Shown here piece by piece: positions 5,288 to 50,985 of a stretch of DNA of 64,000 nt (position 1 is the first letter of the stretch; each line of letters opens with the position of its first letter). The DNA lies in contig WFOA01000010.1 in assembly GCA_015488325.1 (NCBI GenBank), forward strand, positions 15,945-79,944, given 5' to 3'. A model generated the notes under the pieces. It searched no databases and was not told where the DNA came from. It worked only from the letters and a program-made list of their open reading frames with translations. The stretch is from Acidimicrobiia bacterium (GTDB lineage: Bacteria > Actinomycetota > Acidimicrobiia > Spongiisociales > ZC4RG35). Both the position numbers and the translations under genes were made by a program.

Positions 5288-6130
5288 TCAGAGTCGGCGG
5301 CCCCAGACCGCCAGGTCGAGGGAGGTGAGTTCCGACAGGTTACGGACCGACGCGTCGAGGCGGGCCGTCACCGACCCGGGAAGCGGCTGGTCCCGGGATT
5401 CCGCCCGCAGCCGTTCGGCCATCGGATCCCGGCGGAGCAGGAGGGGACGTACGAGCTTGCGGATCGCCCGGGGGGTGACCGGTTCGAGGCGCCGCAGCAG
5501 GCGGCTGTCGTACAGGCGCCTCATGAGGGGCGTGTAGTCGGGTTTGTCGGCGGTGACGTTCACGGCGACCCGGGGGTGGGGACTCGGCGGCAGATCCAGG
5601 AACGCCAGCACCTCGCTCCAGGCCGGATGCTCGCCGTCGACCAGATGTTCCATCTGGACGACCAGGAGCGCCTCGGTCCCGAACCGTTCGAGGAAGGGAG
5701 CCAGGGCCAGGTCGTAGAGGCTGCGGCGAACGTAGGGGTTGTCGGGTTCGGAGACGGCCTGGAGGAACGGTCGACGTTCCCTCCCATGATGCACTTCGTG
5801 CCGATAGTGGCTCCGCAGCCGGGTCTCCGGCTCCCGAAGCACACAGATGAGCCGCACCGACGGGCACATCTCGGCGATCCGAGCGGCGACCTCGGAGGCC
5901 ACCTGGGGGTCCGAGTACGCCACCGAAGCCTCCCCGGCGAGACCGTCGGTCGGGAACAGCGACCGGTAGCGCCGGTGGGCCCGGGAACCTGGCCCGTTGC
6001 CGGTGAGGAAGAACTCGGGTTCTTTCTCCCTGCACAGGATCGAACCCGACGCCTGCTGGAGCCACCGGAACAGGGCGGTGGTTCCCGATTTCATGGTGCC
6101 GACGATGATGAACTCGGGGTCGCGGCTCAT
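5288..6130 (-). CDS. Sulfotransferase family protein (PAPS-dependent)
   Basis: The N-terminal FIIVGTMKSGTTAL matches the 5'-PSB loop (P-loop-like K-x-G-T-T) of sulfotransferases. RLICVLREPETRLRSHY fits the 3'-PB region. ATG at 6130 is preferred over the upstream TTG at 6157. Confidence 0.75.
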   Translation of the reverse strand: MSRDPEFIIVGTMKSGTTALFRWLQQASGSILCREKEPEFFLTGNGPGSRAHRRYRSLFPTDGLAGEASVAYSDPQVASEVAARIAEMCPSVRLICVLREPETRLRSHYRHEVHHGRERRPFLQAVSEPDNPYVRRSLYDLALAPFLERFGTEALLVVQMEHLVDGEHPAWSEVLAFLDLPPSPHPRVAVNVTADKPDYTPLMRRLYDSRLLRRLEPVTPRAIRKLVRPLLLRRDPMAERLRAESRDQPLPGSVTARLDASVRNLSELTSLDLAVWGRRL

Positions 6131-42275: not shown

Positions 42276-43037
42276 GTGCGCACCGAGACCCCCCTCCTCC
42301 AGATCGAGAACCTCCACGCCGGGGTCGATGACGTCGAGATCCTCAAGGGCGTCGATCTCACGGTCGAACGCGGCCGCATCCACGTGCTGATGGGTCCCAA
42401 CGGCTCCGGCAAGTCCACCCTCGCCAACGTCCTCATGGGTCACCCCTCCTACGAGGTGACCGAAGGTCGCATCCTCTTCGACGGCGACGACGTCACCGAG
42501 ATGGCCCCGGACGAACGGGCACGGCGCGGCATGTTCCTCGCCTTCCAATACCCCGAAGCCATCCCCGGGGTCTCGGTGATCCAGTTCCTGCGCCAAGCCC
42601 TCTCCAACCGCCACGGCATCGACTACACGGTGCTGGAGCTGCGGCTCAAGGTGATGGACGCGATGAGAGAGCTGGGGATGGACTCCAGCTTCGCCGACCG
42701 CTACCTCAACGAGGGATTCAGCGGCGGTGAGCGGAAACGCAACGAGGTCCTGCAGATGGCGATCCTCGAGCCGACCCTCGCCATCTTGGACGAGACCGAC
42801 TCCGGTCTCGACATCGACGCCCTCAAGACCGTCGCCGAGGGGATCGACAAGCTCCGCCACCCGGACCGTGGTTTCCTCATCATCACCCACTACCAGCGGC
42901 TGTTGGACTACGTCACCCCCGACGACGTCCACGTCTTCATGGACGGCCGGGTCGTCGAGACCGGCGGCCCCGAGCTGGCGAAGCGACTCGAAGAGGAAGG
43001 GTACGAGGCCTTCCGCCGAACCGAGGTCCCCTCATGA
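42276..43037 (+). CDS. sufC: Fe-S cluster assembly ATPase SufC (copy 1)
   Basis: LQIENLHAGV...[44 protein letters not shown]...NEGFSGGERKRNEVLQM...[14 protein letters not shown] is canonical SufC. Confidence 0.95.
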   Translation: MRTETPLLQIENLHAGVDDVEILKGVDLTVERGRIHVLMGPNGSGKSTLANVLMGHPSYEVTEGRILFDGDDVTEMAPDERARRGMFLAFQYPEAIPGVSVIQFLRQALSNRHGIDYTVLELRLKVMDAMRELGMDSSFADRYLNEGFSGGERKRNEVLQMAILEPTLAILDETDSGLDIDALKTVAEGIDKLRHPDRGFLIITHYQRLLDYVTPDDVHVFMDGRVVETGGPELAKRLEEEGYEAFRRTEVPS

Positions 43038-44263
43038 GCGGTCTCGAGCACCTCCGGGCAGATTTCCCGGTGCTCCAACGGGAGATCGGGGGCAAGCCGG
43101 TGCATTTCCTCGACTCCGCCGCCAGCTCCCAGAAGCCGACGAGCGTCCTGGAAGCGATGGACGACTTCTACCGGTGCTGTTACGCCAACGTCCACCGGGG
43201 GGCGTACGCCCTGTCGGTGGAGTCGACCGAACGGTACGAGGCGGCCCGGAGCAGGGTCGCCTCGTTCATCAACGCCTCCGATCCGACCCAGGTGGCCTTC
43301 GCCCGAGGTGCCACCAGTGCGCTGAACCTCATCGCCCACGGCTGGGGTGGCGAACACCTCCGCCCCGGTGATCGGGTGCTGCTCACCGAGATGGAACACC
43401 ACGCCAACCTGGTGCCTTGGCAGATGGTCGCCGCCCGTACGGGAGCCCGCCTCGATTTCGTCCCCCTCACCGACGACTACCGGCTCGACCTGGAGGCGTT
43501 GGAGCAGAAGCTGGACGACGACGTGGCCGTCGTCGGCGTGACCGGGATGTCGAACGTCCTCGGCACCATCCCCCCGATCCCCCGGATCGCCGAGGCGGCC
43601 CGGACCGTCGGTGCTCTCCTGGTCGTGGACGGAGCCCAGCTCGTACCCCACCAACCCGTCGACGTCCAGACCCTCGGAGCCGACTTCCTCGTCTTCTCGG
43701 CCCACAAGATGCTGGGTCCGACCGGCATCGGGGCCCTGTGGGGTCGCCCCGAACGTCTCGAGGAGATGGAACCCTACGAAGGGGGCGGGGAGATGATCGC
43801 CGACGTCCAGCTCCACACCTCGACCTGGGCGGCGATCCCCCACCGTTTCGAGGCGGGGACACCGCCGATCGCCGAAGCCGTTGGTTTCGCCGCCGCGGTC
43901 GACTACCTCGACAAGGTGGGGATGGACCAGGTCGCCGCCCACGACGCCGACCTCACCGCCTACGCCCTCCAGCTCCTCGCCGAGATCCCCCACGTCACCG
44001 TGTACGGACCCGCCGACGTCGACGCCCGGGGAGGGGTGATCTCCTTCACGATGGCGGACGTCCACCCCCACGACCTGGCCACGATCCTCGACCAGCAGGG
44101 CGTGTCGGTGCGGGCGGGACATCACTGTGCCAAGCCCCTGATGCGCCGTCTCTGCGTGCCCGCCACCGCCCGGGCCTCCTTCTACGTGTACAACACCCGG
44201 ACCGACGTGGACGCCCTGGTCGAGGCCCTGGGGGTCGCATCTCGGATCTTCGGGGTCGGGTGA
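43034..44263 (+). CDS. sufS: Cysteine desulfurase SufS (group II)
   Basis: FLDSAASSQKP...ANVHRG.Y.LS...FSAHKMLGPTGIG...RAGHHCAKPL. Confidence 0.95.
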   Translation: MSGLEHLRADFPVLQREIGGKPVHFLDSAASSQKPTSVLEAMDDFYRCCYANVHRGAYALSVESTERYEAARSRVASFINASDPTQVAFARGATSALNLIAHGWGGEHLRPGDRVLLTEMEHHANLVPWQMVAARTGARLDFVPLTDDYRLDLEALEQKLDDDVAVVGVTGMSNVLGTIPPIPRIAEAARTVGALLVVDGAQLVPHQPVDVQTLGADFLVFSAHKMLGPTGIGALWGRPERLEEMEPYEGGGEMIADVQLHTSTWAAIPHRFEAGTPPIAEAVGFAAAVDYLDKVGMDQVAAHDADLTAYALQLLAEIPHVTVYGPADVDARGGVISFTMADVHPHDLATILDQQGVSVRAGHHCAKPLMRRLCVPATARASFYVYNTRTDVDALVEALGVASRIFGVG

Positions 44264-44274
44264 GGGAGGCGGAG

Positions 44275-44730
44275 ATGTCACTCGAAGAGCTGTATCGAGA
44301 GGTCATCCTCGACCACTACCGCAACCCGCGTCATCGCAAACCCCTCGACCGGGCCGACGCCCACGCCGAAGGCGTCAACCCGCTGTGCGGCGACGAGGTG
44401 ACGGTCGAACTCGCCGTCACCGACGGGAGGATCAGCGACGTCGCCGCCATCGGCCAGGGATGTTCGATCAGCCAGTCCTCGGCTTCGATGATGACCGACG
44501 CGATCCTCGGCAAGACCGTCGAAGAGGTGCGGGACCTCATCCAACGGTTCAAGGCCATGATGGACATCGACCACGAAGCCGACCTGGGTCTCGACCCGGA
44601 TCGTCCGGGGGCGGTGTTGGGGGACCTGGAAGCCCTCCAGGGCGTGCGCCGCTACCCGGTCCGGATCAAGTGCGCCAACCTCCCCTGGACCACCCTCGCC
44701 CAGGCTCTCGACCAGCTCTCCGCCTCTTAG
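44275..44730 (+). CDS. sufU: SufU/IscU-like Fe-S scaffold / sulfur acceptor
   Basis: LYREVILDHYRNPRH...NPLCGDEV...GQGCSISQSSASMMT...VRIKCANLPW is a SufU signature with three Cys ligands. Confidence 0.9.
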   Translation: MSLEELYREVILDHYRNPRHRKPLDRADAHAEGVNPLCGDEVTVELAVTDGRISDVAAIGQGCSISQSSASMMTDAILGKTVEEVRDLIQRFKAMMDIDHEADLGLDPDRPGAVLGDLEALQGVRRYPVRIKCANLPWTTLAQALDQLSAS

Positions 44731-44816
44731 GCTCTTCTTGACCTCCTGCTGATGCGCCCCTGAGTCGCATCCCGGCACGATGTCCACAGAACCGAGGGAT
44801 CAGTAGGAGGTCTCAC

Positions 44817-45692
44817 ATGGAACGAAAGATCTGGACCACGGCGGCGGCGCTCACCGTCGTTCTCGCCGTGACCGGCGTCGCCTGGGCAGGGCTGCCCCGC
44901 GCCGCCGAGACGAGCACCACCGTGACCGTGGAGAACGAGCTGGTGGCCCCGGCAGCCGACGCCGGCACCGTCACCCTCCGGAAAGTCGCCGCCGGCCTCG
45001 AGGTCGTGTCGGTGAGCCCGGCCGACGGCTGGGAGTACACCGTGAAACGTGCCGCCGGCCGGGAGGTCGAAGTCGACTTCCGAGCGATGGACGGGACGGT
45101 CGAGTTCGAGGCCGAGATCGACAACGGCCAGGTTCGCATCAAGGTGAAGGTCCGCGTGGACGCCGGTGCCTCCTCCACGACGACCGTCGATTCCACGTCC
45201 TCGACGGTGGACAGCACCTCCACCTCGGTGGCCGCCGGCCCCTCCACCACCGAGGCGGTGACGTCGACCACCATCGACGACAGCCCGTCCACCACGGTCG
45301 ACGATACGTCGCCGACCACCATCGACGACGACCGCACCACCTCGACCACGGTGTACGACGACGACGATGACGACGACCACACCACCTCGACCACGGTGTA
45401 CGACGACGATGACGACGACCGCACCACCTCGACCACGGTGGCGCAGGGCGATCCGGCCGACTTCGGCACCAAGGTCTACGACGTCGACGGCATCGGCACC
45501 GTCACCGTGGAACGGGACGCCGACGGCCTGACCCTCATCGCCGTCGTCTCCAACCCCGACTGGACGATCAACGTCGAGAAGGCCGGTCCGAAAGAGATCG
45601 AGATCGAGTTCAGGAACGGAGAGCTCGAGGTCAAGTTCGAAGCCGAGCTCGAGTACGGGGAGCTCCGGATCAAGATCGAGCGGGGTTCCTGA
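44817..45692 (+). CDS. Secreted protein with two copies of an uncharacterised ~65-aa beta-rich domain separated by a Ser/Thr/Asp-rich linker
   Basis: AGGAGG RBS. Signal peptide MERKIWTTAAALTVVLAVTGVAWA. Domain copies GTVTLRKVAAGLEVVSVSPADGWEYTVKRAAGREVEVDFRA..GTVEFEAEI and GTVTVERDADGLTLIAVVSNPDWTINVEKAGPKEIEIEFRNGELEVKFEAEL. Confidence 0.8.
   Translation: MERKIWTTAAALTVVLAVTGVAWAGLPRAAETSTTVTVENELVAPAADAGTVTLRKVAAGLEVVSVSPADGWEYTVKRAAGREVEVDFRAMDGTVEFEAEIDNGQVRIKVKVRVDAGASSTTTVDSTSSTVDSTSTSVAAGPSTTEAVTSTTIDDSPSTTVDDTSPTTIDDDRTTSTTVYDDDDDDDHTTSTTVYDDDDDDRTTSTTVAQGDPADFGTKVYDVDGIGTVTVERDADGLTLIAVVSNPDWTINVEKAGPKEIEIEFRNGELEVKFEAELEYGELRIKIERGS
45336..45440 (+). repeat. Imperfect tandem coding repeat (45/42-nt units) encoding TTSTTVYDDDDDD
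   Basis: accacctcgaccacggtgtacgacgacgac... occurs at 45336, 45381 and 45423 (the last copy partial). Confidence 0.7.
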
Positions 45693-45696
45693 CCGG

Positions 45697-46974
45697 TCAA
45701 TCCTTCCCGAACACCACCCGGAGAACCGCCCCGCCCTCGGGGCGGTTCTCCGCGTCGAGGTGGCCGCCCGTCCGCGCGGCGGTACGGGCCACGATGTCGA
45801 GTCCGAGACCCGTCGACCCGGCCCCGCTCTCCCCCCGGCGCAGGGGATCGACCCCGTCGGGGAACCCGGGTCCCTCATCGGCGACTTCCAGGACGGCACC
45901 ACCGGCGCCTCTATCGACCTTCACCGTGAACCCGGTCCCCGGAGGGGTGTGGGCGAAGACGTTGCCGACGAGGGCGTCGACGGCGGCTGCGACGTCGCCC
46001 GGAGGGAGCGGCACCGGCGTGGGATCGTCGGTGATCTTCACCTCCAGGGCGCGGTCCTGGTCTTCGGCGGCGACCGCCCAGAAGGCGATCCGGTCTCGGA
46101 CCACCGTCCCCAGATCGCAGGAGGCGGGCCGGTCGTCGGGCCTGGACCGGGCCTCTTCGATGAGCAGGTCGACTTGGCGCTGGAGGCGATCGAGCTGGGC
46201 GAGGAGGGACTCCCGCTCGGGGGATGCTTCGAGCCGCTCGACGCGCAAGCGGAGGGCGGTGAGGGGGGTGCGAAGTCGATGGGAGAGGTCGGCGACCGAT
46301 TCCCGCTCGGCGGCGAGGAGGTCGTCCAACCGCCGTGCGAGCCAGTTGAACGACCGGGCGACCTCCTCGATCTCGACCGGACCTTCCAGGGGAACCCGAA
46401 CCTGCAGATCGCCGGCTCCGAGACGGCGGGCGGCCGTCGCCAGGCGAGTGACGGGACGAACGAGGGACGTTCCCAGTCGGTCGGCCACCAGGACGGCAGC
46501 GACGATCATCCCCAACCCGAGCAGCGCCAAGAACACCCAGGCGGTGGCCACACCCGACCGCAACTGGTCGTCGGTGACGAAGGCCGTGACCACGATCGGG
46601 CCTTCCCGGGTCACCACCGGGAGCGCCACCTGCCAGCCCCCGTCGACCTCGTCGGCCACCGCACGTTGCTCATCGGCGGCGAGGCGGGTCACCGCGCTGG
46701 GCAGGGCGGACCCGATCAACCCTCCGTCGGGGAGGATGACGCTCACTCCGGGAGGTAGGGGCCCGAGGAGGTCGGCGAGGACGTCGACGTCGAGGCGGTC
46801 CACCTGGGCGAGGGCGAGGGCGACGAGGCTCCCCACCTCCTGAATGTCCCGTTCAGCGGCGACCCGGGCTCGGGTCTCCGCCTGGTGGCGGACCAACAGG
46901 GCCAGGGGCACGGTGAAGGCGATGACGACCAGGGACGTCACGGCGGCGGAGACGAGGACGAATCGGCGTCTCAC
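45697..46974 (-). CDS. Sensor histidine kinase (two TM segments, HAMP, HisKA, HATPase_c)
   Basis: GTG 46974 (GTGA overlap with the RR stop). H-box ADLSHRLRTPLTAL. G-boxes DEGPGF and GSTGLGL. Confidence 0.9.
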   Translation of the reverse strand: MRRRFVLVSAAVTSLVVIAFTVPLALLVRHQAETRARVAAERDIQEVGSLVALALAQVDRLDVDVLADLLGPLPPGVSVILPDGGLIGSALPSAVTRLAADEQRAVADEVDGGWQVALPVVTREGPIVVTAFVTDDQLRSGVATAWVFLALLGLGMIVAAVLVADRLGTSLVRPVTRLATAARRLGAGDLQVRVPLEGPVEIEEVARSFNWLARRLDDLLAAERESVADLSHRLRTPLTALRLRVERLEASPERESLLAQLDRLQRQVDLLIEEARSRPDDRPASCDLGTVVRDRIAFWAVAAEDQDRALEVKITDDPTPVPLPPGDVAAAVDALVGNVFAHTPPGTGFTVKVDRGAGGAVLEVADEGPGFPDGVDPLRRGESGAGSTGLGLDIVARTAARTGGHLDAENRPEGGAVLRVVFGKD

Positions 46975-47654
46975 GATTCGGGTTCGACCAGCTTCACCCC
47001 CACACCGTGAACGGTCCGCAGGTAGCGGGGCTGCTGCGCAGACTCGCCCAGTTTCTTGCGAAGCCACGACAGGTGCACGTCGACGGACCGCTCACTGCCG
47101 CCGTACGGCTCCCGCCAGACTTCGGCCATCAGCTCCCGCTTCGACACCACTTCGCCTGCACGTTCCGCCAGCACCCGCAACAGGTCGAACTCCTTGGGAC
47201 TGAGGTCCAGGGGTTCACCGTCGAGGGAGGCTTCCCGGGAGGACGGGTCCACCACCAGGCCGCCGATGACGATGGGTCCGTCCCGCCGACCCGACTCGGC
47301 CCGGCGAAGCACCGCCCGCACCCTCGCCTCGAGCTGGGCCACCGAGAAGGGCTTCACGAGGTAGTCGTCGGCGCCGGCGTCGAGGGTACGGACCACCGAC
47401 TCGTCCCCTTCCCGGGCGGTGATGACCACGACGGGCACCTGCGACACCGCTCGGATCATCCGGAGCAGCTCCGAGCCGTCGAGGTCGGGCAGGCCCAGGT
47501 CGAGGATCACCAGATCGGGCGACGATCCGACGACCTGGCGGAGACCCTCCATGGCGGTGGCCGCCGATTCGACGTCGTGACCCTGGCGGGCCAGCGTCTC
47601 GGCGACCAGGTGCCTGATCTCGAAGTCGTCCTCGACGACGATCACACGGGACAT
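46971..47654 (-). CDS. OmpR/PhoB-family response regulator
   Basis: MSRVIVVEDD...DLVILDLGLPDLDG (receiver domain). C-terminal winged helix ...VDVHLSWLRKKL...YLRTVHGVGVKL. Confidence 0.95.
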   Translation of the reverse strand: MSRVIVVEDDFEIRHLVAETLARQGHDVESAATAMEGLRQVVGSSPDLVILDLGLPDLDGSELLRMIRAVSQVPVVVITAREGDESVVRTLDAGADDYLVKPFSVAQLEARVRAVLRRAESGRRDGPIVIGGLVVDPSSREASLDGEPLDLSPKEFDLLRVLAERAGEVVSKRELMAEVWREPYGGSERSVDVHLSWLRKKLGESAQQPRYLRTVHGVGVKLVEPES

Positions 47655-47693
47655 CGGCCCCGAGCATATCGGCCGTGCCACCCCGGAGATCGG

Positions 47694-47723
47694 ACCTTGA
47701 CGAAACCTTGACTACCCCTTGAC
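47694..47723. promoter_or_regulatory. Three direct repeats (ACCTTGAC, ACCTTGAC, CCCTTGAC) with exact 11-bp phasing; candidate OmpR-family RR binding array
   Basis: Repeats start at 47694, 47705 and 47716. They sit in the 103-nt divergent region between the RR gene (start 47654) and the secreted-protein gene (start 47758). Confidence 0.6.
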
Positions 47724-47757
47724 TTCCGAGTGCGCGGATCTCGGGGAGAATGACGGT

Positions 47758-48405
47758 ATGCGCCGGCTCGTACTCGTCGTCGCCTGGATGGGCGCCACCG
47801 TGATCGTCACCGCCACCGCCTGGGCGGTGGTCTCCGCGGTGGAGGACCGGGTCAGCGACCGGCCCCTCACCCCCCTCATCGCCACCACCTTGGCGGTCGA
47901 CGAGACCACGACCACCACCTTGCCTCCGGTGACGGACCCGTCGGCCGAGACCCCGCCGCCGGCGACCGGCGACGAACCGACCACGACCACGGTCGGAGCC
48001 GAGACCGACGACACGGTGGCCTCGACGGGAAACACCGGAGGGGGCACCGTCCCCACCACCGCCGCCCCGACCACCACCACGACCTTGGTGACCACCACGA
48101 CGACCGTCCCGACCACCACCACGACCGTCGCGACCACCACGACCACCTCGACGGAGCCCTCCGGCGAGTGGCAGACGAAGACGATCGTGACGCCGGGAGG
48201 CAGCCTCACCATCAAGCACCGCCCCGACGAAGTCGTCTTGACGTCGACGACTCCGGCCGCCGGCTTCGTGGTCGAGATCAAAAACGCCGGTCCACCCGAA
48301 GTGGATGTCGAGTTCGAGACGAACGACGACACCGTCAAGATCGACGTGCGGGTCCGCTACGAGAACGGCGTCCTCATCGAAGACATCGAAGAGGAGCGAA
48401 GCTGA
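47758..48405 (+). CDS. Secreted/membrane-anchored Thr-rich protein with one copy of the same ~65-aa domain as 44817..45692
   Basis: MRRLVLVVAWMGATVIVTATAWAVV is a signal or anchor. Poly-Thr linker (TTTTTLVTTTTTVPTTTTTVATTTTTS). C-terminal GGSLTIKHRPDEVVLTSTTPAAGFVVEIKNAGPPEVDVEFETNDDTVKIDVRV. Confidence 0.75.
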   Translation: MRRLVLVVAWMGATVIVTATAWAVVSAVEDRVSDRPLTPLIATTLAVDETTTTTLPPVTDPSAETPPPATGDEPTTTTVGAETDDTVASTGNTGGGTVPTTAAPTTTTTLVTTTTTVPTTTTTVATTTTTSTEPSGEWQTKTIVTPGGSLTIKHRPDEVVLTSTTPAAGFVVEIKNAGPPEVDVEFETNDDTVKIDVRVRYENGVLIEDIEEERS

Positions 48406-48408
48406 ACC

Positions 48409-49800
48409 TCAGAGGATGCCACCCTCGGTCATCTTCTTGATGTCGAGGGCGGCGTCGACCTCTTCGGCGCTCATCAGCCCCTTCTCGAGGACCACCTCCC
48501 GCACGGTCCGCCCGCTGGCGAATGCCTCTTTCGCCACGGCGGCTCCGGCGTCGTAGCCGATGTGGGGGTTGAGGGCCGTTACCACGATGACGTTTTTCTC
48601 GACGAGTTCACGGGCCCGTTCTTCGTTCGCCTCGATCCCGGTGACACACTTCTCGGCCAGCACCCGCGACGCGTTGCCGAGGATCGTGATCGCCTGCAAC
48701 AGGTTGTGGGCGATCAACGGCATCATCACGTTGAGCTCGAAGTTGCCGTTGGCTCCCCCCCAGGTGATGGCGGCGTCGTTGCCCATCACCTGCGCCGCCA
48801 CCATCATCACCGCCTCGGGGATGACCGGGTTCACCTTGGCGGGCATGATCGACGAGCCGGGTTGGAGTGCCGGAAGCCGGATCTCGCCGATCCCGGTGAC
48901 CGGACCGCTCGACAGCCAGCGGAGGTCGTTGGCGATCTTGAACAGTGACGTGGCGACGGTCTTGAGGGTGCCGGCCGCCTGCACCGTGGCGTCCTTCGCC
49001 GCCTGCGCCTCGAAGTGGTTCGTGGCTTCCCGGAACGGGATCCCGGTCCGCTCGGAGATGACGTCGATCACCTTCGCGGCGAAGCCTTCCGGACAGTTGA
49101 TCCCGGTCCCTACGGCGGTTCCCCCGAGGGGGAGCTCCTCGAGTTCGGGGAGGACCTTCTCGACCCGTTCGATCCCCTTGCGGACCTGGGTGGCGTAGCC
49201 GGAGAACTCCTGGCCGAGGGTGACCGGCGTGGCGTCCATGAGGTGGGTCCGTCCCGACTTCACGACCCGTTCGAACTCCCGGGACTTCTCCTCCAAGGCG
49301 AGGGCCAGCGCCGACAGTCCCGGGATCAGCACTTCCCGCACCTCGGCGGCGGCGGCGACGTGGATCGCCGTGGGGATCACGTCGTTCGACGACTGACCGA
49401 AGTTGACGTGGTCGTTGGGATGTACGAGTTTGGACCCCAGGGCTCCACCCAGGACCTGCGAAGCGCGGTTGGCGATCACCTCGTTGGCGTTGGTGTTCGT
49501 CGACGTCCCCGATCCGGTCTGGAAGATGTCGACCGGGAAGTGCTCGTCGAAGTCGCCCCTCGCCACTTCGGCGGCGGCCTGCTCGATCGCCTTCGCCTTC
49601 TCGGCGTCGACGTACCCTTCGGGTCCTGCGACGGCGGCCACCGCCCCTTTGATGACGCCGAGGGCCCAGATGAACCGACGGGGGAAACGGATCCCCGAGA
49701 TCGGGAAGTTCTCGATCGCCCGTTGCGTCGAAGCTCCGTAGAGGGCGTCGGCCGGGACCCGGACCTCGCCCATCGAGTCTCTCTCGGTGCGGTACTCCAC
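48409..49800 (-). CDS. fumC: Class II fumarate hydratase
   Basis: [11 protein letters not shown] signature. [19 protein letters not shown]. 463 aa. GTG start with GAAGGAG RBS. Confidence 0.95.
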
Positions 49801-49873
49801 GATGGTGCTCCTTCGTCGACAGCTCCAGCGTACGCCCCGGCCGCCCCGGCCGCGACCGCTGAAAGTCCATCCG

Positions 49874-50674
49874 TCAGAAGTCGAAGGGAGTGTCGGTGAA
49901 GAAGTCCGACGGCCGGCGTTCCGACGGGGTGGGTTCGGGCTGGAGACCGAGACGCTCCCGCAGGCCTTCGTATCCTTCTGCCTCCAGCTCGTCGGCCAGC
50001 TCGGGTCCTCCCGAACACACGATCCTGCCGTCCATCATCACGTGGATCCGGTCGGCCCGCAGGTAGCGGAGGATGCGGGAGTAGTGGGTGATGAGCAGCA
50101 CCCCGAGGTCGGGGCCTCGCATCTCCTCCACGGCGGCCGCCACCTCCCGGACGGCGTCGATGTCGAGTCCGGAGTCGATCTCGTCGAGCAGCGCCGCCTT
50201 CGGACGGAGTACGGCCATCTGGAGGATCTCGGAACGCTTCTTCTCCCCGCCGGAGAGGTCGTCGTTGACCGACCGGTCCAAGAATTCGGTGGCGCCGAGG
50301 CGTTCGGCGAGCTCCCGGGCCCGGGTCAGTGTCGCCTCCGGGTCGGCTCCCCACTCTTCCGCCGCCTCTCGGAGCAGCTCGGACAGTTTCACCCCGGGGA
50401 TCTCCACGGGATACTGGAAGGCCTGCAGGAGCCCCAACCGGGCCCGCTCGTCCACCTCGAGGCCCAACACCTCCGTCCCGTCGAGGAGGGCGGATCCCGA
50501 GACCTCGTAGCCGTCTTTTCCGGTGAGCACATGACAGAGGGTCGACTTGCCCGAACCGTTCGGGCCCATCACGGCGTGGACCTCGCCGAAACCGATGTCG
50601 AGGTCCACGCCACGCAGGATCTCGACGGAACCAACCGAGGCGTGGAGGTCGCGGATCTGGAGGGCGAGGCTCAT
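49874..50674 (-). CDS. sufC: Fe-S cluster assembly ATPase SufC (copy 2, with ~20-aa C-terminal extension)
   Basis: From ATG 50674 (ATGA overlap with the Rieske stop): [10 protein letters not shown]...ILRGVDL....[17 protein letters not shown]...[16 protein letters not shown]...[13 protein letters not shown]. Confidence 0.9.
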
Positions 50675-50985
50675 GACGGCTCCACGGACAGGTAGACGTC
50701 GCCGTCTTCCACCTTCACCCGGTAGGTGGGCACCGGCCGGGTCGCCGGAAGGGTGAGGGGTTTGCCCGTCTTGAGGTCGAAGACGGCGCCATGGCGGGGA
50801 CATTCGATCTCGTGGTCCACGACCTCTCCTTCGGCGAGGGACGCCTCGGCGTGACTGCATCGATCACCGAGGGCGTAGACGTCGTCTCCGACCCGGACGA
50901 GGGCGATCCGGTGCCCGGGAAGGTCGACCCGCACCGGGGCGCCCGGGACCAGATCGTCCATCGACGTCACCTTCACCCAGCTCAT
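50671..50985 (-). CDS. Rieske [2Fe-2S] ferredoxin-like protein embedded in the suf operon
   Basis: CSHAEASL...CPRHGAVF (CxH...CxxH). 104 aa. ATGA overlaps on both sides. Confidence 0.9.
   Translation of the reverse strand: MSWVKVTSMDDLVPGAPVRVDLPGHRIALVRVGDDVYALGDRCSHAEASLAEGEVVDHEIECPRHGAVFDLKTGKPLTLPATRPVPTYRVKVEDGDVYLSVEPS

Follow-up and report, generated by a model that had tools for sequence, protein, structure and literature searches.

Phased direct-repeat arrays as likely operators of an OmpR/PhoB-type response regulator in a four-gene cassette of Acidimicrobiia

MtrAB-LpqB and CseABC are actinobacterial two-component systems in which an extracytoplasmic partner protein is encoded alongside. 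At the level of the operator, PHO boxes are direct repeats with an 11-bp period, comprising seven conserved and four variable bases and bound head-to-tail, and their half-sites read GTTCACC in Streptomyces and CTGTCAT in Escherichia coli (PMC4415409). PhoP of Mycobacterium tuberculosis recognizes 7-bp repeats with a 4-bp spacer (PMC4832192). PhoB and PhoP bind as tandem dimers (2, 4, or 6 protomers) that replace the -35/sigma region 4 contact (PMC4415409, PMC4832192, PMC11825685), and displacement of this contact is described for tandem PhoP dimers (PMC11825685). In Streptomyces coelicolor, PhoP operators with three 11-nt units form a recognized class (class II), complex operators combine strong core units with weaker extension units, and the divergent phoU-phoRP genes share one common operator and show positive autoregulation (PMC2275107). 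The PmrA box consists of CTTAAG and xTTAAT half-sites placed 5 bp apart, and in PhoB, Arg201 contacts a guanine (PMC3973317).

The locus described here lies in a 64-kb stretch of Acidimicrobiia DNA, which we refer to as the window, and consists of a four-gene cassette encoding a secreted protein (P2), a kinase, an OmpR/PhoB-type response regulator (RR), and an anchored protein (P1). The RR gene (46971–47654, minus strand) specifies a 227-aa protein with Response_reg (1.1e-27) and Trans_reg_C (2.6e-25) domains, as in the OmpR/PhoB type; its recognition helix reads RSVDVHLSWLRKKLGE. Full-length similarity extends to the structures of KdpE, PrrA, PhoP, RegX3, and MtrA, and the protein falls below the cut-off of every named NCBIfam equivalog (CseB, 181.5/350; MtrA, 180.2/300; PhoB, 178.8/296). 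The kinase gene (45697–46974, minus strand) encodes 425 aa with two transmembrane segments and, by Pfam, HAMP, HisKA, and HATPase_c domains. Orthologs of 420–425 aa guided the choice of its start, a GTG at 46974 that has a 4-nt overlap with the RR stop codon. Judging from its translation and orthologs, the P1 gene (47758–48405, plus strand) encodes 215 aa, in which a hydrophobic anchor at the N terminus is followed by a Thr-rich linker and, at the C terminus, an all-beta domain of ~70 aa. The translated P2 gene (44817–45692, plus strand), convergent with the kinase gene, encodes a 291-aa secreted protein with a signal peptide, two ~70-aa beta domains, and a repetitive Ser/Thr/Asp-rich linker. 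The linker (45262–45440) is encoded by tandem repeats of 24 and 42 bp, with TTSTTVYDDDDDD-type units, and its length and composition vary widely among orthologs; the P2 orthologs in three related loci (L085, L086, and L088) look truncated or frameshifted.

Between the divergent RR and P1 genes, positions 47694–47723 (plus strand) read ACCTTGAC gaa ACCTTGAC tac CCCTTGAC. These letters contain three direct repeats of the unit form (A/C)CCTTGAC, whose CCTTGAC heptamers occupy 47695–47701, 47706–47712, and 47717–47723 with a period of exactly 11 bp, and reading them confirms the three-repeat array that a preliminary description of this DNA had reported at this position. The array, which is further supported by half-site score and ortholog conservation (below), lies 40–69 nt from the RR ATG (47654, minus strand) and 35–64 nt from the P1 ATG (47758); the distances previously given were right within counting convention. 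Tandem Repeats Finder returned 47694–47724 with a period of 11 and 2.8 copies. The heptamer itself occurs seven times on both strands of the 64-kb window, compared with a shuffle mean of 6.7, and three of these seven occurrences are the phased P1 copies. Apart from the P1 array, the window contains no second CCTTGAC-N4-CCTTGAC at fewer than two mismatches. A search of 44400–48500 against Rfam for an RNA element found nothing credible.

We gathered orthologous loci through the RR protein, by genome scan and homolog look-ups, and not through the motif, such that sampling was unbiased. This yielded nine loci from Acidimicrobiia-type MAGs (L001, L002, L081, L084, and L085–L089) with RR identities of 71–96%. 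Three phased repeats are present at the equivalent P1 position in all nine. Absence of the repeats from orthologous intergenic regions had been named in advance as an observation that would speak against a regulatory site; the repeats were found in every case. No variation occurs at 19 of the 27 array positions in an ungapped, array-anchored alignment of six lineages, which gives CTTGA-N-G-N-AACCTTGA-N5-C-N-TTGA, and the remaining intergenic columns diverge, with the exception of two -10-like hexamers discussed below. The P1 array has several features that mark a PHO-box-like operator: the repeats are direct and not inverted, the period is 11 bp, three units stand side by side where at least two are expected (and the P2 array, below, has four slots), an OmpR/PhoB winged-helix regulator is encoded beside the site, and in 9/9 loci the site is conserved in the orthologous promoter where its flanks have diverged.

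For a quantitative description, we counted 60 half-sites, in which T at position 5 occurs in 60/60, A at position 7 in 57/60, G at position 6 in 56/60, and T at position 4 in 50/60, with variable spacers. The resulting consensus is yCTTGAs, and each 11-bp unit comprises seven conserved and four variable bases. A 31-bp matrix covering the full length of the P1 array, spacers included, gave no rank to the P2 promoter when used as a search model, since it is dominated by the GAAA spacer specific to P1. Half-sites were therefore scored on their own, and their scores added up over phased slots. The half-site weight matrix was derived from orthologous arrays of other genomes, with the window and its 96% identical relative excluded, and the null distribution from the maximum in each of 200 first-order Markov simulations of the 64-kb window. 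The P1 array scores 36.3 bits, compared with simulated maxima that average 7.8 bits and reach 19.9 at most.

The same model identifies a second array upstream of the P2 gene. At 44725–44764 (plus strand), four phased slots read TCTTAGG ctct TCTTGAC ctcc TGCTGAT gcgc CCCTGAG, and equivalent four-slot arrays were found in 9/9 orthologs. When a P1-derived matrix was applied in leave-one-out fashion, the best match in each of 10/10 loci was the P1 array (25.7–36.5 bits) and the second-best match was the P2 promoter, again in 10/10 loci (11.7–25.1 bits); third-best matches scored 5.2 bits or lower. A look upstream of 44817, as the preliminary description had suggested, therefore uncovered a second phased array that is conserved in 10/10 loci and stands in equal register to a -10-like hexamer. 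Apart from P1 and P2, neither the 64-kb window nor the flanking DNA of related loci contains an array that scores above chance. Slot 1 of P2 (TCTTAGG) overlaps the TAG stop codon (44728–44730) of a NifU-like gene, an overlap that may account for the degeneracy of this slot where the cassette sits in a suf cluster. One orthologous locus on a metagenomic contig (L117) carries two P2-type arrays ~650 bp apart (around 6085 and 6740; CCTTGAC ggtc CCCTGAG acgc CGATGAC), a pattern that points to P2-type genes in tandem, with a predicted array for each.

The cassette and its arrays occur in varied surroundings. In the window, the neighboring genes (42276–50860) form two convergent sets, mostly related to Fe-S clusters (suf), with an ABC ATPase, a cysteine desulfurase, and NifU on one side and fumarase, an ABC ATPase, a Rieske protein, and SufB/D on the other. 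Genes of the suf type and fumarase flank the cassette in the window and in L081, L084, and L187; a cNMP-binding protein, an acetyltransferase, and an ECF sigma factor are its neighbors in L085–L089, PAP2 in L188, and other genes in L192 and L193. The four genes remain linked throughout these neighborhoods, which are of at least four kinds, and both arrays are present wherever both promoter regions are covered. P2 homologs down to 28–38% identity are always found beside an RR-kinase pair. The four-gene module occurs widely among Acidimicrobiia, with its core gene pair extending to Streptomyces and Lentzea.

Both arrays hold a fixed position relative to predicted promoters. Upstream of P1, a predicted -10-like hexamer, GAGAAT (47746–47751, plus strand), begins 22 nt after heptamer 3 and ends 6 nt before the ATG. 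A NANNNT hexamer occupies the equivalent position in 10/10 loci, 21–23 nt past heptamer 3 and with the start codon 6–8 nt further on; elsewhere it reads GACAAT, CAGAAT, CACAAT, or GAAGAT, and in most orthologs a TGG (extended -10) lies just 5' of it. On the opposite strand, the predicted -10-like hexamer of the RR promoter, TATGCT (47663–47668, minus strand; consensus TAnnCT), precedes the RR ATG by 8 nt. When six lineages are aligned without gaps on the array, this hexamer stands at a fixed 26 nt from heptamer 1, with invariant AG..TA columns, and the RR start codon follows it by 6–8 nt in every one of the six. Because the start codons of P1 and RR come only 6–8 nt after -10-like hexamers, the two mRNAs look leaderless, judging from the predicted start sites. 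The P2 promoter has a predicted -10-like hexamer, CACGAT (44776–44781, plus strand), exactly 11 nt after slot 4, and a NANNNT hexamer occurs at exactly this distance in 10/10 P2 promoters. A leader of ~29 nt follows CACGAT and includes GGAGG at 44806–44810.

In both arrays, heptamers fall at -63 to -57, -52 to -46, and -41 to -35, counted from the predicted start sites, and P2 adds a slot at -30 to -24. The P1 counterpart of this last slot is unconserved; the P1 spacing of 21–23 nt to the hexamer equals one empty slot plus ~11 nt and hence is in the same register as P2. Each array is oriented toward the secreted-protein gene downstream of it, and orientation and register together tie the arrays to these flanking genes. 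The P1 array runs opposite to the RR gene. In the stretch from array to -10-like hexamer there is a short inverted repeat at each promoter, CCGAG-N9-CTCGG at P1 (47726–47744) and GATGCG-N9-CGCATC at P2 (44751–44771); these repeats are partly conserved in some lineages and may be due to chance in GC-rich DNA.

In more diverged cassettes, with RRs 57–67% identical to that of the window, phased arrays are kept at equivalent promoter positions and in equivalent register, and the half-site drifts to CGTTGAG or CGTTGAC, CTTAAC or CTTAGC, and CTGAG. Drift of the half-site with its cassette is the behavior expected of a private regulator-operator pair. TTGA is gone from every slot in one lineage whose recognition helix has Glu in place of Trp, and the half-sites read CTTAAC or CTTAGC in lineages with the Trp retained. 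No phased arrays were found when we searched the loci of paralogous RRs. The homologs in Streptomyces and Lentzea (L003–L007; RR identity 54–57%) keep the divergent membrane-protein gene across an intergenic region of ~25–100 nt and have a recognition helix, DVHLSWLRRKLGE, almost identical to that of the window RR, and no array was found within ~4 kb of them. In these loci, a TAnnnT hexamer lies only 7–8 nt 5' of the RR ATG, for which reason their predicted RR mRNA is probably leaderless as well.

On the basis of adjacency and co-conservation, we consider it likely that the P1 and P2 arrays are operators of the cassette's own RR. The tandem, head-to-tail RR sites proposed in the preliminary description hold up in their geometry, and ortholog conservation and the second array add to the case; the part of that proposal in which the embedded TTGAC could also serve as a -35 element finds no support, for reasons given below. 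Two observations count against assigning the arrays to the RR. Three strong half-sites are an odd number for a dimeric binder, and Streptomyces and Lentzea combine a near-identical helix and the divergent gene pair with the absence of an array within ~4 kb.

The second of these observations would also fit a different reading, in which the arrays are bound by another factor, such as a global regulator or an OmpR/PhoB-family member encoded elsewhere. A metagenome scan bears on this point. The scan pattern, CTTGANGRAACCTTGANNNNNCNTTGA, returned 97 stretches, and because it is biased by design toward conserved arrays, we used it for co-occurrence only. About 24 high-GC matches are orthologous P1 promoters, in all of which an RR ortholog starts 39–42 nt away, and contigs that reach past the kinase gene carry P2-type arrays in 6/6 cases. 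A second set of ~12 contigs, Firmicutes-like and of ~52% GC, contains four perfect CCTTGAG repeats with an 11-bp period (L098, at 5960–6080, and L102, L103, L111, L116, L124, L125, L143, L155, L156, L159, and L162; L137 is similar). Here the array is flanked by the operon of an ABC transporter and by that of a different OmpR-type RR and its kinase. This RR is 35% identical to the window RR and has a different recognition helix, TTLMTHIRHLREKI; the array is probably the operator of another regulator with a convergent half-site. Three high-GC groups have intergenic AACCTTGA-like arrays, and no related RR was found beside the array in them (L160, 4477–4503, with L095, L119, L121, L129, L135, and L148; L131, 4406–4432, with L104, L151, and L158; and L164, 7453–7479, with L169). 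The other matches are simple 11-mer tandem repeats in low-GC, probably eukaryotic, contigs.

The motif alone is therefore not diagnostic of the window RR, since 11-bp CCTTGAG repeats also occur beside an unrelated RR or without one. This occurrence lends some weight to binding by a different factor, as do the Streptomyces and Lentzea homologs, which share the recognition helix and yet have no array. Against it, both arrays remain with the four-gene cassette in at least four genomic neighborhoods, the half-site drifts along with the cassette lineage by lineage, and a search of the 64-kb window and of the DNA flanking the orthologous loci found no additional array. We accordingly regard a different factor as unlikely and return to the cassette's own RR as the probable ligand of both arrays.

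If the cognate RR does bind, it would be phosphorylated by the co-transcribed kinase, and its protomers would then bind head-to-tail, one per 11-bp unit. At P1, protomers would occupy the heptamers centered near -60, -49, and -38, and the RR would also fill the four-slot array at P2, reaching -24. Since a usable -35 is missing from the P1 and P2 promoters, which have only a -10-like hexamer, the RR on its sites would most likely substitute for the -35 contact and recruit RNA polymerase, resulting in activation by analogy with PhoB and PhoP at PHO boxes. The P1 array also keeps a constant distance from the predicted -10 of the divergent RR-kinase operon, an arrangement that would probably bring about positive autoregulation. 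A single observation, the fixed 26 nt between the array and the RR -10-like hexamer, suggests that the RR probably controls its own gene from the P1 array; autoregulation is the less certain part of this model because the array and the RR gene point in opposite directions.

Binding of the cognate RR could instead lead to repression or to dual action, for example through shut-off of the RR promoter or occlusion of RNA polymerase. OmpR/PhoB regulators are able to repress from similar sites (class II/III operators, PMC2275107; a repression complex, PMC11825685), the P2 slots extend to -24, and the P1 array is inverted relative to the RR gene, all of which would suit such an outcome. What makes it rather improbable is that the P1 and P2 promoters have no usable -35 and that the arrays sit where activators of this family replace one; in addition, a geometry with equal register at two promoters typically goes with activation. 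We therefore continue to favor activation by the cassette's own RR.

It is very unlikely that the TTGAC units are instead basal promoter elements, that is, stacked -35 boxes or an UP-like element used by the housekeeping sigma factor. The idea derives from the match of TTGAC to the sigma-70 -35 consensus, TTGACA, over its first five bases, and the preliminary description had likewise suggested that the embedded TTGAC might double as a -35. A consensus promoter scan at the P1 array found no site, and a workable -35 is absent from the P1 and RR promoters. Placing TTGACN as the -35 would leave a spacer of 20–22 nt to the sole conserved -10-like hexamer, compared with a criterion of 16–19 bp. The last base of heptamer 3 is C, G, T, or A among orthologs, conservation includes the AACC before TTGA, the P2 slots nearest the promoter lack TTG, and on the RR strand the units read GTCAAGG. 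The suggested -35 function is unsupported on three of these counts: spacer, variable last base, and TTG-less P2 slots. An ECF-type -35 (GGAAC) within the GGAAACC junction was considered as well, because an ECF sigma gene lies nearby in some loci; it was rejected, as no conserved CGT-type -10 lies at 16–17 nt and the junction reads GAAAC in most loci. That the repeats are a functionless, neutral product of replication slippage, of the kind suggested by simple 11-mer tandem arrays of the same sequence in low-GC, probably eukaryotic, metagenome contigs, can be set aside with near certainty given a core that is invariant in six lineages amid diverged intergenic flanks, inter-heptamer spacers that diverge as slippage copies would not, and a second, independent array in equal register.

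The two genes that the arrays adjoin encode related proteins. P1 (48160–48402, plus strand) contains one copy and P2 (44937–45158 and 45462–45689, plus strand) two copies of the ~70-aa all-beta domain, with P1-P2 homology at a BLASTP E value of 2e-8. A profile built from the three window copies retrieved 1509 cluster representatives at E <= 1e-3 (clusters at 50% identity), in which proteins usually have two copies of the domain and have up to 13–17. The domain shared by P1 and P2 is a real family. Pfam and NCBIfam contain no family for it, the only match being a sub-threshold one to amphi-Trp (TIGR04354), and a word-indexed protein search with the isolated domain gave no match. Its AlphaFold2 model is a confident seven-strand beta meander (pLDDT 94.5), for which Foldseek found no match in the PDB (best E = 0.25).

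A more far-reaching proposal, which we regard as possible and on balance doubtful, is that the arrays define the private regulon of an undescribed, self-contained four-gene envelope module, in which P1 and P2 act as co-sensors or effectors of the kinase and close a feedback loop. Confirmation that the cassette's RR binds the arrays would provide an operator model (yCTTGAs, 11-bp slots, fixed -10 register) for an uncharacterized two-component system that is very common in uncultured Acidimicrobiia, and it would name the first two target genes of that system. It would add little on mechanism, as the architecture is textbook OmpR/PhoB; the more novel aspect is the uncharacterized cassette under the presumed control of the arrays, rather than the type of operator. 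The arrays also make approachable the role of two putatively regulated secreted proteins with an unannotated beta domain.

Among the described systems, the PhoP operators of S. coelicolor offer a close parallel, as they too are actinobacterial, belong to an OmpR/PhoB-type regulator, are built from 11-nt units with ~7 conserved bases, and include a three-unit class. The complex operators of this species, with their core and extension units, resemble the P2 array, and its phoU-phoRP operator, like the P1 array, lies between the regulator operon and a divergent gene; its positive control of both sides and its position adjoining or overlapping the -35 region are predicted for the P1 array as well. 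The differences are that the half-site in the window is yCTTGAs, that the RR is not PhoP by NCBIfam cut-offs, and that the cassette's targets are two secreted proteins and not phosphate genes, with binding in the cassette being predicted. The arrays were also considered as Pho-regulon PHO boxes and do not fit that consensus, with yCTTGAs in place of GTTCACC or CTGTCAT. E. coli PhoB and M. tuberculosis PhoP share with the cassette the 7-bp repeats and 4-bp spacers, and their sites are also comparable to the four slots of P2 and the 11 nt that separate these from the -10. Unlike at their sites, P1 has three strong units and an unconserved promoter-proximal slot; the half-site sequence differs from theirs, and the window RR has Trp at the position of PhoB Arg201.

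In sequence, the closest known half-site is that of the PmrA/BasR box, whose CTTAAG resembles the CTTGAG of the arrays described here and the CTTAAC or CTTAGC of diverged cassettes; the 11-bp period is shared, as is the head-to-tail binding predicted for the cassette. The PmrA/BasR box differs in having two half-sites only and in belonging to enterobacterial, AT-rich promoters. PmrA itself matches the window RR no better than other family members do, and the resemblance is a lead, not evidence of relatedness. In gene content, the nearest systems are MtrAB-LpqB and CseABC, in which, as here, an OmpR-type regulator and a HAMP kinase are encoded beside secreted or anchored proteins, and CseB and MtrA are the best NCBIfam models for the window RR. 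The RR nevertheless scores far below the cut-offs of both, and the partner proteins of the cassette are unrelated to those of either system, being built around a new beta domain.
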